A stretch of 64,000 nucleotides of DNA. Origin: Promethearchaeia archaeon. GTDB lineage: Archaea > Asgardarchaeota > Lokiarchaeia > Sigyniarchaeales > SOKP01. Made by a program: the position numbers and the translations under genes. Below, one piece after another: positions 36,101-36,973 of the stretch. Location of the stretch: the NCBI GenBank assembly GCA_049671145.1, contig JBATUM010000185.1, positions 1,828-65,827 of the forward strand. The letters run 5' to 3'. Under the pieces are notes generated by a model, which worked only from the letters and a program-made list of their open reading frames with translations, ran no database searches and was not told the DNA's origin. Each line of letters opens with the position of its first letter. Positions within the stretch are counted from its first letter, which is position 1.

Positions 36101-36973
36101 TCACTTTTACAATTAGGTTTAATATCAATTGACAATAATTGGAATTTAGAATTTAAAGCCCCAAAAGATATAGGAACTCTAATAGATATTATTAGAAATC
36201 TTAATATTCATGCCAATTTTGAAATTAATTTGGATGGTGCGAATAATATAGAGAATGTGGCAAATCTAATACTTTCAATATTATTATCAGGGCACTATAA
36301 AACGTATACAATTGTTGACGAGACAGGAAAAGTAATAAAACAGAAACAAAAATATACTCATCCCGGAAGAGATTTCTTAGGTAATTTATTCGAAAATTAT
36401 CAAGTAGGTATTAAAAATCCTCTTTATCACATCAATATCAATGATATTTTTACAAAACAATTTATTTACACTCGACATTTTGTTAATTTCTTTAGATTGT
36501 CTCAATTATATGATGAAAAATTATTCTTTCAATTACCACCAGGTACTCAATTCACTAAAGCAAAAACCATTGGAATTGTTGAATCTGTGGGTGGTGAACG
36601 AATAATCGATGAAATTAATAATATTCGAGTAAAAGATAATAGACGTGTATTTTGGCTCGAATTAGGAAACCAATTTAGTGGATTTGAACATATTCTGTAT
36701 GACAGGAACATATTCGGTACATTTGAATTGAATAAAGAGAAAAATCCTTATGGGCATATGAGAGACTTTGCAGAGTGGGGTGGTTTTTATACTAGAGAGG
36801 ATATAGCGACATTAATTTTGAATACAATTAAAACACAAGAATACACAAGTAGTATAAATGAAAATGGAATAGAAGAGTTAAGATTCGAAGTAATGACAAA
36901 TTTTGGAATTATTAAGGAATTTGTTATCATAGTTGCGAGTAATGGATATATAATTTCTGCTTATCCGCAATAA
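101..36973 (+). CDS. Giant (12,290 aa) membrane-anchored surface/adhesin-like protein with a C-terminal toxin-like domain
   Basis: A single 36,873-nt reading frame is open in AT-rich DNA, while all other frames carry only short ORFs. Order of parts: soluble N-terminus, Lys/Arg-rich stretch, hydrophobic cluster, long N/S/T/Y/D-rich region with Ig-like, LamG-like and DxDxDG motifs, second hydrophobic cluster. The C-terminal region recurs as orphan copies downstream. Confidence 0.9.
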   Translation: MFEKKESDIKKSEKQRKKDIDDGLHKYGNYLYSKVYGAPETLLTDHEGKIGFYKSQTMFCPKTECPYHRVSDLSLNIDYNLEEFESEIDYQELIGHKIKQEVQNITPIEKEPVKTLRGQFQEFLKTYKISNVTPDEYFGIAMFFNKYYRKSESPDSQKWVLKKLKYTSDLCSVEEVEDTKQKSKPLPHSNVKLIGKYERYLESQKRSIRRSRYNKKVMKRRTKNLKSYKPIQIQEPSLKKEIYNRNVTRQQLHNVNKNRPFKEKQIPDPIYDRKSKIYYDSSLTENYCLKKVLEQSHVHELTHNYTDESLLRKEIEFFYLKDFLGFFLRNPNLQKSFHFKDSDEIVHFAKLIKGYCYDSFISNIVEKYLKESPLYRLISNISLLSSQIEKQIIPAFEDIISKSKKIRQIINYAEWTNLFTLSRNIEHIQNQLIQHQVKQKHHALLIGLLQQVNALCKDDQVLTHLRDVCRFIKVQVTSITPYIYSSIKLKNRKRAQLLLTHTPVSDLVSFVKRMIAYDIIMQRLEMKESLSLNNKDDKPVETTFSKIKNIFRKEKTQNNMRKKRLISRIKLPKSKKLHIKLNIFNKFRKKRRITKKIRKIRKLKESDYRTKHPDESLYKRIRRRSKEKFGKVRKRSILNLAGKGLASFGVILLCIYLIISLDNSFFPFHIFMGFLIFQVLIYGILLFFSIDRYVLSKSRLWYLILSPFIGFTLLWLCVKLGFSLGATLVIPIFMVVSQLLTRNRPHISVEELVRRSTSKIRHSTLRLFYHTHKFGFLTFLLTIVLIIFLYFYFFVPHLNYIPPMLATLVIFIFTFKSKSALKRVIREVRRKRAKVEESEIKANKCLLVLQDSNKRKALIVLVFLVLFPVSFIVNSAKTVHCPPVEFAYISQEDRLSSSSLDFETLEYQPDTTYLEDISIKDMFIMKSEISPEFAQSAAMRIQLIPEDVPYIEGYHIRDHYDFRSGYVNGPLEDYALITKVELNRFDILPGQYQMHVYYTELTGFSFATSTPEEYEITLEKDAMQVLSNERFEDLPVEYYGAVWTVENVVDNCWTIHFDGTLTNSIHEPLANYELDLFIEDHDTWQKVTTVTTDLEGKFSYEYTIYGSIEMNMMIKISHEGNGLYKPLEYIEYAGLEINTELGRFFIDEDGDGKIDWGLSLEDLLNALLGMSYAPPSSLDFLSHFSESSGTNTYDAVHNYQGILKGDTQWTVGKEGYGLYFDGEGTVSEGSETIGTTIYNAYANVSYQYSDTGWNSPQTTSSVDRSGSVNWSNPNNAQSQDDSYTSSNLEISGGSGVSSWHAESDSEQSITSSSYVEKHTLDFTAPAQGDYLIIVSCEVASTSTSYSVGVRVQLDDTTTIMEALTEACDSNRNYEYKCESTAYLAEDLGSGSHSIDIDAKREGGTSYIRYARIIVLRLDDWLSTTGMYAYTSTEGSTTPASNQWVDLETLTFTPDQAGDYLVLGSVEVKDYHTGYSAAVRLDYDNGSEYLPVIQGEESGQSYITYEAKDTTDYHAFVFGGIINITASQKSIKLQSYMAHTGFYREVRRRRIIAIRLDAMSSDTQSTENASNTSTTSQWADKSSLQFTPSSQQDYFIIGGMVIKPDRTWKPSHGELTHTTGTGTGTISLANVDSKDHDNPADCFPLIGIAIKQLNAEQQVFKTRYGYAGSSGTTYGKGSFIIAVPLGGGGGGGSAESDNLRCTNFGFNIPTGATIEGIEVGMDRYATNITENSIRDDSIRLRKTSGPVGTDNATTDWWDTMDDDTYNTYGGSTNLWGTSWTPADINSINFGIDIAAENIGSTNTAYIDHVRVKIYYTKQDSGIIRPDGDVSAQWEASSDGNHYSLINEETLNTSDYIYTSSNTTGSVIDEFTMETLNIQSGTVTEITVKVYGNETSIDSTVNVYCGSWIGAKQLNMESGQTWYTYTWSGLNLSQSDLDGLKIKFESVQPPSEGSTTYDYVDFGDILDSALGTTNNEFVITGWVYPTVLTSNQSDNGIKNCFFSKEGILEIGINESGYLQLYINTSSIEATAIYGFQNAISTNKWIYIAIRYNNGNIDVLIGDTWCTSALGSTAEPWSGGGNLQSGGKFTIGAETTSYSCFTGKIDEVSVFNTSLTNAEIEEHSFQITATVAKEDGQGGWTLITTNGEVIEGYLNFQCAVAGREADTVEYYLSNEVPDMESPDTNDWYFLTSYSYDSSSYNFVYNSWDLPDNDSWYFIIKATDVYNDTVYTYYETYFGIDHFDELINFTYLDKDGRINQNSQIGVIPYEGCEGYISQLNLYVNYSNDIDYLTTVNYSDLYSNYWLFNLDSLSDWISQKGLTPDNYDINFLIEANLSYSVGEAFYLYNYTLETITLDIEPPELELLTSGNYSFDLEDTYDIIEDNVLTMATNSSDAYFDRVILEYKYTTPSTAGWIEYGEYLADNTSLADVSFDIINLRDDNITIRFIGYDDLDNSKILYSSDYWFIKNFNNHEEFVVEGLEATALYGLDDTDKIDLELKILPVDNDITEVIVRTNYEEFKLDNIISEQEHIYFTDDGSSDPDIKLNSVFYNVFGAKFTFIPVKVILYQGTDIVNSKEVVITVISAVFNDTVQMSNLEINVSSTTDNIYMSFVNETNAYNNSHSIPFVVRNQYPVVNVYNSLNELVESIPLYANNDSWGSKVYDTETIEISSNKFNVSLPTPPSGEVCSIDEVLLNGSAYPFSYFISMNTGQVYITLLSGNDLDGIYNSSNPISIIYGVSTSPHPTEQFVGSFDFSNLHQDNYTFIGKFYDISGEVSTYSISQPTIIDFDGPEIYQQFMQETAVNPETGTISFVIEDFSGVSHYYFNTTIEGYWDIAGDIYTFYFNDTSISEGTTHIILSCNDTLGYESQQTFVLFLDKTTPSFDGVESSTDVWNGLFEIYANISDNSGYTVDIELLHISSNTISSSFEHTYIEIAPDQWQILLDSTRLQSGYYNISIIATDAAENIQTYVIDNVYFDNTISVIEELKEEVFIDSESMYNNTIHDELYFSDEKYITFTAFDEMFDNFNWSSIDQAVYEQLGVKNVTFYYTSQLAWYPLQIYGTLDYETFVYKITGYDDPLNTNVQNIKSIQKLRIANITVDKFTVLLDGTSISIRIDEQYRYLLSSEYSDQIEAQFYEFVDDNVLLAFDQVSEKWKLKSTGENYFNISQYLTLNEGDEFLFWFEIEDGLGNLIHSHKYHGVYDNSMTKDGSDSFFKWSLGTNSTGAGIVLFGSDTYADSTIQLNSSSIENTIFDESDVQRIYIYGSSDQSTWEFIGRAYYSGEESIWNYYWDGDIMEQLPPDHYNLRVYLFDRAGNYLSETHVIRTFDYTQIALITDLIFGEIFDYNSTANSNEQELKGIIENYLSGSSTSLWDVIAEYYNPNTKEWIPLATDPATIVANGNSANYTITWDINQDTAFMDTMYNLTYNYLPLQIASPTQQSLWGSWGTFGIASEWQPIIISEVSSNLDISVYKFNSTTGWELDTSLSSEATISSIEGQVFKLFDINKDGVYEIIRVSSSKIDVIYLDGSSDWTIKEDVTGLSGYEYSAFDIEYDGTSSNSVMVITQKDSSQLLSLWYYRFDSEFNLTKVESVECPINFEPYAIKIENYFSGSDRKAILVGGLISNSYISQVFEYDFNLNLKYVIADEIIGKVSVIEYDQINGIDSIILGVERLAIGKMDAVITLKRTTGTEEWVEFELSGFDDLKFQIIDLITIQENNMKHLIISSKTGLFQTRIITLQDKTSITSPICFISETYAKGELSPTNYPVVTPNNLPIYNIQKASYKTSGSNQWQTLNPEKYRYSRNEIRLDLQSIWSSLTYIKIAYSFESFVAEARSSVDPSFQSYSGTSDTQSVSASGMFFNDFSLPFAWLNPTSNYYAPNAHWNTLPNSLTYQYTPVISGLGNKVVYPTIKSDWAENWGSEYLNMPELENSLIYYGDGYDTGQLTQYLNSKDPDLADTMYLNNYVDGMYISNPYISENYNFSDMYYSDIHNINNQNGLYNYYDGSQKVIARNSLEDCQVYGSSNSKVFEEETFPTKGEDHYLHSVTYIYGSPSSGSIANTKRDDSNYFEMKSQFFHDPYGDDYQEFNVDLNIDGGYGGDDYYVSVRVTAPISVRLIINGVYAQGTSIDVNLDYIGDITQIKLTAGRPASQGQFKVKLYYFKVAKSLSADSPLYQNPSAQEAEYVLANRSQYLATDTSDFAVFGLGFTYKLPVIDRDGIEGIHIMFDAAISAVTADKHYPLSIQLWNYEQNRWESINVSKLDSSDTYDDNYLDKDFWAWDPGASSYKDDKFRSSWLTQDDTSINTICFGDCVPHSIDASGYIDFDSSVENGGNLFNTSKTGYSRNNEYISHYRVLFNNTAYANKLQANSLVIDPNNFFTSTSTFPAYTDSSLFYSANFYTDFLNDLHEFKVRIVTEKESGQGTNINAYLCIGDCNTYVHTDSSYLNYDEFESNALDGRHISDDLEFTDQGMKLYGYSGFNLKGVPEVQKFRDAFNSYQWQFEGTDDSTIYFTKDILQGTVVRSLHPSTNYDTNNFTSYRRQDAVIDYPFYKSALKGNYKAGSLLSIETNNGIYLSYTSEKDTYHEAEVKIYNYFDQMSGNAAKTYTIYYDIESEGTVDFMSLYNEDETIAQWDGGELSGMDRVEDPSTYNLYVYARSNSNFTLNIDQLVVETTPEEWETFMELDTLEEYLTFGSNDKFNLTVSRDSYLYIPTPSPIAKLYSTYLFDEDTITWNNKPADRGLITQNTLPQSSTSEIFDLGTIHPTKQYIKVDISATGGFNFWSPIVNYQFAKSYQEGGMLYMQTNTTEFLTLKSPVYAKNTTMTLNDHIVVECKTTSSNQINLALLSGDVVVKNYTLIPQNNTDFTSQFIALDTNSTIKFDQIIISGQLDEAEYFIANSITVFEGESIVDVKLSAYDFTIKKNQWPNVLPEGAKDQELSDPIYGQEKDGLYYNLSSGTFIDYQQLIVEFEFPLSAEEITNAHKVQVRLNGYAQGASLDDAIFKYFNFDNGNEEEISYVKNNGEYRFSIPKSDFATLKYDNDNYYVNFKMILTNTSMGPDDEFTLHIDSIDAIVFKDWSVDHDLYRVSYVFKRLGDSQTGGNVTLAVNDDILLTIDDNDLYTSGYENVVNFYYDTQTQEWSAFINEDPEDKTNATDTELSLKLRVESHYNNVNHGILLKSVDHHFYKKIENSLNFEEYKSILYSYENRLGNAESVIIGNSSDLITPENLFTQVCADIDVIYSFHDEMVPDNILSYSLNPTLESTYQDTLAAFNYTETGFIPKSSTSSEIEVYNDEKIAVENTTSHTQNGLPYRCSGFFDDQYLSNNTLRFTIKNSIQTPLFGRSNETLYANLKLTDVDLEFNVIISPTYTGFPLENTNVEGNDETVYNPSVLCNYSAYSQSRFRNSAIDDVQIPLISPIELDFSSINLDDFGTANLELALGLDIFRNNILYNRSWSLRFRLLYYNYSSDSWVDFQGMLRVKNNGVDKAVWNPDSTDNFIDYLQDPNANNFIPIYNENNIVIKNPITINNINTDTIQGGIMKLMFISYILPGNFSGDGNNNYFFYERADPDVPIEISQSLTIQECIMIGESKQIMYPEPSLKATLGLDENFRANLSLIENLGDIIAIRGLYEDGDGILYQYPIDYYWTTSGNELAFNSPMKYLFTNVSIEYVPQASLSYNATDGLWYLPNLITINGKNYTQPFFVSNLYVNDTLYGTYVHPSVDVGYVLGFDDKNVYANFSTPIHPDSNVYGAIYFGKVDSKYLYQIKLKDELLYKYNVLNDEDDLIGGIIKLGLNVGFTNVIYSELSQVSCSDYLLDITLYSLSENNDEELEREKIGTIHIDLDKNWVGYHYYDLEINLDQCEFVNESKGIKRLAEALTRGSAADLYIEVESVITNCFVNGPLFKGLYAQDIISAEFEIESDTSEIQYNGAEVDNAYIEIPQKSIMLTKIGTNIYKFGNLKYNFGFVVDELRAEGSVVLAENTHYEFDAGSRTITLIGDDYKGYSGLLSADITYYAFKWNAGQVSTLDPITLTFTQDYVQNITKFMEFIIQYDTIPGIDIEKIDFISGRIVLSDEEKSSALLNIYLYNFVEDKWELTPFVPYDDYSGSLIYSYVADRNFVVFEDYFNQTGSDTFEIKAIFTVEQESGECFASKIGFGITSIGAKLYYNTPSVQHKLNPAVEFDIDITDYITDPNIYLEELTVDLMYEAEIEFDAAFIYSQYALLEENFNFYIRNNYLEFDEFELNHNSITLSREEVYCFLYHDIVNEKYYLRAKLEYDWNCILEINLGSSSKLEIISELTLLKYDLTVDYTYYETTRISANEITVPHEIVPIYAPNYIETQSGINNLADDEELDLGIFGGFLRNVDTRQRLMIRQKLLYNFTESQQDWTQIILDHEYTDSTLRFVVPYGYMEIPETYIINSTYFGFIADHEVVHVELYYKDGQTDTKVANMTQNEEEPTLFKYTWNDVKGDTGASTNDTIEVMFNVTDILGNNAKYRYNLTADFDPPTPTIELGDGVQDFESANTATPLTEIDFICGEQSSCTEEYRIVDLVSGFVSSWNEINHSEISILHDLGDLSANFSIEYRVIDIAGNENITSIYNGNYQYIQFSKEKSITLNDDTIDLNSYTNREISFADGNEFNHSSQLDVFINGFRYGTAYLDSGYYKLSFGNENSEKTLIGYSESLISNNIFSNINPLDHVSWEVREDEYFAVVKHVLLNDNIEIYNYLSFNTTAQFELDHLYDRGFSLHDFMYLNRVYYYNETDGNVYTLISELDYSITENGFVEFPENSTIYDLYQNSDVQDGVVYFNYCYSPYQEQLLLTNADGFFVNVSIPDVYYHHTTIQKLVVSFNDIDGNTFTKIYYDLDLRKYFMEDVKAQYENYMFKLGKMMSIPLYIDFSDIALSNPGKNFALHLLESISFRITDSEKWPGSYIQNFSDYTVMNLPYQRFAITDLKLYNLISDTIDADEQGYVTANITFTAPEYYGFYAEEEFKIKRLDIVFTDVKAYVYHEEILDGSTVAIEYSDQIILNYRWNNTFSPVIMDDVVNLPITLENASNGDILGFSVANWITKLDMDSESGYYTRYYYSQFLAPSLLGEFNISFGSLGTPIFNMTFISPPIFILNITQETLSATEPIYLADDMYELKYGETLLLDGCIADNDEYLIEDEVYEYKYEEAVDGKTTHALKILSPFGDDEFIDKEEFSIYFINDKLNVKCLYSTLNGLHFVNTSYLDGKREPTISYVDNSFILNINWYKKSDHFIEYDTLLLISYKVLKGKPISPTSFSSLDSYGNDMQQNLIEIPFAKYDILSRSWITEDDFEKQLFVDKQLLYKDVESTQATIQGPQYDEGSLIQTGIIDIHAVYVNKSYSDKFCHVAPTEYTWSINANGELVVEDLNYSSGDVFKVIYYAVEPVALSHSVANPQYQISHITVTNDTGYSYEFVEGNDYKVSEDGYTLYFLDLYNEFLKNNVFTIYDYFNITYHAPLSRKVDLSQNVLLMLQDTEGNDIPIDNIPIDSLGFFQYKKQLKVDSDLSLPLGGGKQLVHLTLKYLPLSVYNKSADQSITIDYEDQNVGKFYPYVESNAWAKPFTVITIPHRVKLKMVEDPTQDMVITQEFYEEREYKFNYNPVEALENGEEYTKIMIDALAKEEYQFTFRLSDFDDKPIENSVVWLHIGLMPKSKTGFLNERAVIDEYNIHPYFESLGTEEFTSRGPGIGTNKMFGRPLTYELNYYNTNYSAYGPYVWLYGITNAHGEVIFDVSFDNDFIEDFTDIFGLMEGFSSVEDIVLYIRAFSTDFDWDEFTIDSPDQYLCSKDGDVYNGITEEHYSYICSINNTISYNLALQDSTYVEGLIHLYKNHIALGVHDHVSYDLPDAKVRSRYDPLKLHLDVTEADPIPTTEMYTLQSLTKLHASSELEPSGNPILSDDYTYYAYVNFITPSGSVAESTYRAILDGGNNGYITFDNQTIKDILIDLGPGISTIQIQVAESEYYQASPVVMVPLEIKPANWTKFGEKNLEIDLIDPFINAYGNAFDNDNYIPFESNYPHLIGTLWIDPDYLGTGDNRSAKERSALDCMELNLIFNPDNTDPIPLRKGVMLSPGNQDGIMLFDIGFGPEDSFLMDISGVLNFSFSIEDTKYGIYEDNRTFEAYLLDLRLEENPSCSTPTTLWSVYENGFDTSGVDHLSVKVIDPSIISTETGSLSLGGFENGVNYGFEIEFEYDPEVEEYAIDAQSELLSLFCLESITSLEIINETGQEVTGWSQYYPSPSNLREQSAIKFGSSTPKNYTKFIIIYKFEFEFGTNNYVNMIFGPSNNMNKTSILFYFEDGFLPPSEDSKSFMFIRYNQTIAGTGASSYKLDYSIYGATSGDEDKFIIYNEQELEEELNKEVSLSINGVDHHAYIEFNETIGSGTSFNVIYGVSSQYMLGYGFQKEDKSYSDSVRLMYNNNSAASIIDSSSNTVGTVVLDDPSLYISLDNSPNETVLEFYNVPMLYAPEIIMTFKLDPMNTKLINENYQNEENTLKIKFYYVAQGGYGSYYTDALEIPLNYTKIQSDLINDIYTLQYSKDLQGIYEAFGVGSLDIYISISQTGNNSNYIPYIILEQFDYLCDEHLVEMYARMPLTKEGEMDVEAIINTPHYFQVFSQPFIDCEWGESPFDLMNGSEITVALEDLIHSSLVSLDVEDGNYGFTYLGTMETLPINSENYYMIPNLGVFTDAYSVDEVTYNEGFLNLFYGAGAQVSGEYEYYNRHYMVHESSPVDDYYSVIGSGVPTSWEDMFNITNQFLTTQEIDVSGTVLYHQLFDLTTDTIDMGDLEDVLGNITNAYFALQLPDEVSIAHIRAIGTPYEYDLSVQGFPVGDYVDGTYCKVKTSGTTQAFDTRIIDLDLLNASTDFDLKFATNGSKYIVFYKPTSFVQNLAENDMIMVDFWAYYTFAEGFDYEIEEDPINPYVSIIDWDYNIESLQSYTMHPDFANGSSFSIEFSALDWNSINNQYIYDGEDEFTFHPSISTNITVPYYGDATEDFSLLNIVPEEQWNDTEIFYYVYVYIWDGENESSTELYELREAFYNGYITQDENCSFYFTLNFTAMEDYIKIMEGNNYEIISDTYAFVQVSFISDQLKYPLSHTPFNYDYVGTEHTSYHIKLTISNNDPIYSYQTSEFSKYVLKIEDNYIHFQNRNYSEEGYIANKTNIKIEYKFKLQPGLLEQKHVLMTIYPWSNTFDSIFDGLTAADGSMMSYREKYRKLSGGSIISPFEYSLSINETYSLLLSYRLNQREYFEEHFEIDHRTGENEFYYMQEGLDLYVSELVEDGIPAVYVYYHDEEGRLNFLDRESYLVDTNIHKLTILSDSNPIITYIKDFYVSFLVTPHDFISTGYKFTYNPSIKNITETLTLTSWNVLNGESFDVYPNFDAYYYLNEDTLTPTFCESFATQIGAVLEEEERLVLNFTDALDSQMLTDIRDGKYLSLYINTAFSNYESLDHITIELNDTSGIMSEFTQVYTRSDLEYWDFKIKVRLPSTANTLQNMTIIPEFRSDDEYSPNNSLGVPRFDMIEWDSQALVEDINGQYMLHNLEYPLYTDESSLDLAYLFTDKLEYLGLPTGIAFNWSIEKDALGKDISILHIPSIYVDPITSVNCTFEDGDTIFLRYNSPVEKEIGIGIESMYFHKEPYGYDSLSTLAECMLINASSSESFVEFIAPYSYNFSLSLTPFDTEYMGSYKNIEIEFNVSSLAQFADGDGYVDFSDLVFSVPNPAYELTIQEVALIEHSLAPSEYVDEFYSRIWQYTELEEFTSSADPESDQYHLLLEEGPIFYYDADEGKWLEHLKIYDENYNYYSACVQGDADAKNYQLLYDSTSGNFTWNNNFDKTQEYWGMEIELPSIIDANTSFYFEYCTNSSWVHPITLYYTHIDFDSVDIIYNYEYLLTPRFEEWYGEIVENSNYDYELVQYYGETFTVYTDESVYSHIFNVEYSFTKDFVNMSLYKIVGMYANYTELMIEDDDVNFDITFDVEDKNVTITDLNSGDGLLNVFDSITIFLNYSFGPISMLTEVYLSDEFNQTYLTDMEETFYDYVSCSFSYHANSPNYLFAEPYQYIISGSSSFSPINFSRNEDLTTGYHLESYDTTTLYTKFEIFEDPFNVIYEADIDSNGEVDYKQEVDVDKDGKVDITRYGVEDPEYAGQIIWYRVIQEFESTERTIELFENPEKRTEWFDLDESHVGTLLDAEYREGVLEMFGIDSLEGFPLWNPTYWNMWCQRSTKQSSSKEQVVTTKFYSIRSDENRDGYAETQVNYLKTIATTYTNLTTIEETYVAGQTTCITSHKLDYSKMSAIFSIVTVEHLESGEFPDKFKKFTGIIEQLKESFTKYVRTTCVYYKDTQISEQIKYIEFEEGEIKETRVYSDNFVDEFSAFDCESTIQTLTITINDTEQAQEVVSPAAFIAEISTLNWTTPTWGIDDVPLKFDSLTTISSEGDIVAENYYERTIIISVPSIYSLYHEYLSDERAGMLPVATSNTLFSVKGVFITPPDGQVFYSSDKLDYLSGRLVEDGDGSGGFSVKAKTEGHYLYYDSDGNGYYETIFILYPDHVGDGIYTVMSVGFNYDGRQVFDPYEVLDYEILQGNVKSETEQSAKVVGAVCHRTLLAQIDEVYPNDFDGVIAKDHIFEIIKLVRRGDINKYWPELYYEVYHDQYARSWELYSQGFQDDLWDQTRNQLIAGIVGGSLGIFNVALGGLAYAFIYWGYSMMESEEKKQLAENHMRSATFYSIETERKDPIKVSQKHPADGPEDMWENINGHPSAFYTEVSGGEPGNLYTGQAVIIPPRSFSTWSESMYHVNPHDYPDLAIGYLNLDYFFLSSELSAYNDRPHYSFYFDNLGNMDDLSEVFSALSELGARPTDPSSFFAKALLYHQYRHNTLAYLEDHVEVISDKEFNAIRPICINGRPRYEFINANDELNQLTLPRSPLYQPIVVDQERYDALVEEFGVPIGVISVEVASDLLEEDYTLGISSSDMNLAERESYNAKIPLTATKFDYPITKVTIEGFSPTYGPYGLLVVDEEPLFEVELDTYDYKLIGGNLYFLQSINTIAAQKDPDFNNKISTIQSMDREFYYRVNIFFNTIVPYDSSRVYDDEFTQSSRPAQVLYEYVDTEADDLGKLALAQLISLSIGNYLEVFTLATATAEYHTEQRYTTDITLQSTLITSLALAPMTIANLYGSFSSSVLAELSEEAGEEITKLTTQQALICLAKASAVVLASIPTSVLKEVYEELYIDTWIEHTTDRIVTALGGDEGAASWWSTFICSFREAFLGWFSDVNIGSGADSQVTTETTQTTGTPTYADMGLNAAWDLIQNTEQALQNIEVAIQQGRKVASKGILSSLVDTDSILALLLSIPGLIVGGFGLGALSLLGSASMDMIHAQIQKNVARKWVSAYESIQENMQQSLDGLIEQEIARPKIKTLDLEVFNYPTVGYTPEIGRQLTQNYLTPAQIIDQTNTLIADTEKTLAEIESRYEIQKENIEQQLEVLKEMVNSESVSNENPFEIFVAEAAVKADPVYEVNGMRIWIQPLPAEHYNLDHDMTLNEFLALIDILNDPSKQAVFNGFILQHGTEILTAQGIIRLDGNMPLSQALDLIGYDRNNLEDQFNRLAPCIQIIDTTTLLQLQDDISNLFNPDAREAIFYRNSISDYQRSYFYYKFLKVYQIQQSEIKNTFNKPIYEVIYSRLVNSLPTDIEFTLEAWKQEVDDKAKQEGKITDEFRYIVDLCLKEVILLNLIELSGANEIDINEIFNSLDNYLENNLDALIEKLSDPKNFALLLAEVKNKIIDNLAQDDLSVFLALTHRYFDSINPNPSQLNLLDEQFQNILILKDLSTIAEDNNVRNEINFLSDFIYRLLNIYSETAILEGLNDLPVPGDKREGNDFINKFLNMQGPNSEIQYSINHLRNMFTALGLNNDLLKEMLLDQKSFFRVLRQKIQQASQNQDLDQEVRNIFNNIETNLGDLDFNGNDGFTSDEEMLLKILDEELNNLFGYVGYSLLQLGLISIDNNWNLEFKAPKDIGTLIDIIRNLNIHANFEINLDGANNIENVANLILSILLSGHYKTYTIVDETGKVIKQKQKYTHPGRDFLGNLFENYQVGIKNPLYHININDIFTKQFIYTRHFVNFFRLSQLYDEKLFFQLPPGTQFTKAKTIGIVESVGGERIIDEINNIRVKDNRRVFWLELGNQFSGFEHILYDRNIFGTFELNKEKNPYGHMRDFAEWGGFYTREDIATLILNTIKTQEYTSSINENGIEELRFEVMTNFGIIKEFVIIVASNGYIISAYPQ
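2030..2725 (+). other. Cluster of about 6-7 predicted transmembrane helices (N-terminal anchor of the giant protein)
   Basis: Hydrophobic runs include LASFGVILLCIYLIISL, FHIFMGFLIFQVLIYGILLFFSI, LWYLILSPFIGFTLLWLCV, LGATLVIPIFMVVSQLL, FGFLTFLLTIVLIIFLYFYFFV, MLATLVIFIFTF and ALIVLVFLVLFPVSFIV. A K/R-rich stretch (about 1780-2010) precedes them. Confidence 0.7.
4051..5150 (+). repeat. Three tandem protein repeats of about 120-130 aa inside the giant ORF
   Basis: The units start HTLDFTAPAQGDYLIIVSCEV, ETLTFTPDQAGDYLVLGSVEV and SSLQFTPSSQQDYFIIGGMVI. They end RIIVLRLDDW, RIIAIRLDAM and SFIIAVPLGGGGGGG. Confidence 0.7.
5969..6465 (+). other. LamG / concanavalin-A-like lectin domain (main part)
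   Basis: The sequence ...NEFVITGWVYP...WIYIAIRYNNGNIDVLIGD...GGKFTIGAE...FTGKIDEVSVFNTSLTNAEIEEH matches the Laminin_G_3-type pattern (hydrophobic core strands, then F-x-G-x-I-D-E-V-x-h-h-N-x-x-L). Confidence 0.6.
10480..11300 (+). other. Possible FG-GAP/VCBS-like beta-propeller region
   Basis: Blades of about 50-60 aa recur, with motifs such as FDINKDGVYEIIRV, FDIEYDGTSSNSVMVIT, KAILVGG and DSIILGV. Judged by eye only. Confidence 0.3.
14160..14420 (+). other. Possible DNRLRE/CBM-like module
   Basis: DKFNLTVSRDSYLYI...LFDEDTITWNNKPA resembles the TWNNxP signature of DNRLRE-type carbohydrate-binding modules. Confidence 0.3.
30470..30539 (+). other. Two adjacent DxDxDG-type calcium-binding loops
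   Basis: DIDSNGEVD and DVDKDGKVD lie 8 aa apart. Similar loops occur at about 3540 (DEDGDGKID), 10600 (DINKDGVYE) and 31735 (DSDGNGYYE). Confidence 0.5.
32520..34290 (+). other. Conserved pre-toxin module shared with the orphan ORF at 41867
   Basis: The two copies are collinear. Giant gene: LNLDYFFLSSELSAYNDRPHYS, FNAIRPICINGRPRYEF, LYQPIVVDQERY, YNAKIPLTATKFDYPITKV. Orphan: LNLDYFLMTSELPAYNFRPGYS, FDTIRPVCKDGRPQYEF, LYQPIVLDQYRF, YKAKIPLFQHEFDYPVQNV. Both continue into matching hydrophobic segments. Confidence 0.8.
36482..36970 (+). other. C-terminal cassette CT1 (putative toxin domain plus junction)
   Basis: From VNFFR onward it is collinear with orphan CT2. CT1 reads VNFFRLSQ...AKTIG...RVFWLELGNQFSGFEHILYD...ASNGYIISAYPQ. 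CT2 reads VNFFRSSH...AKTIG...RVTWLELGNQFGGMEHILYD...SSNGYIINAHPW. Confidence 0.6.

Follow-up and report, generated by a model that had tools for sequence, protein, structure and literature searches.

The three related C-terminal ends are archaeal counterparts of a bacterial contact-dependent toxin domain, the CdiA-CT of Serratia marcescens, whose structure has been solved (PDB 7M5F). The sequence-only reading had described a C-terminal domain family in three divergent versions, which is borne out, and these are real protein ends; it had guessed at RNase-type toxins, and an RNase fold is predicted for CdiA-CT. Each of the three toxin ends is followed by a separate "immunity" (protective) gene.

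The giant protein, encoded by an Asgard archaeon, is 12,290 residues long. Because the predicted RNase-type toxin ends are related to CdiA-CT and each has its own "immunity" gene, the protein looks like a weapon with a swappable warhead, whose targets would be neighbouring cells.

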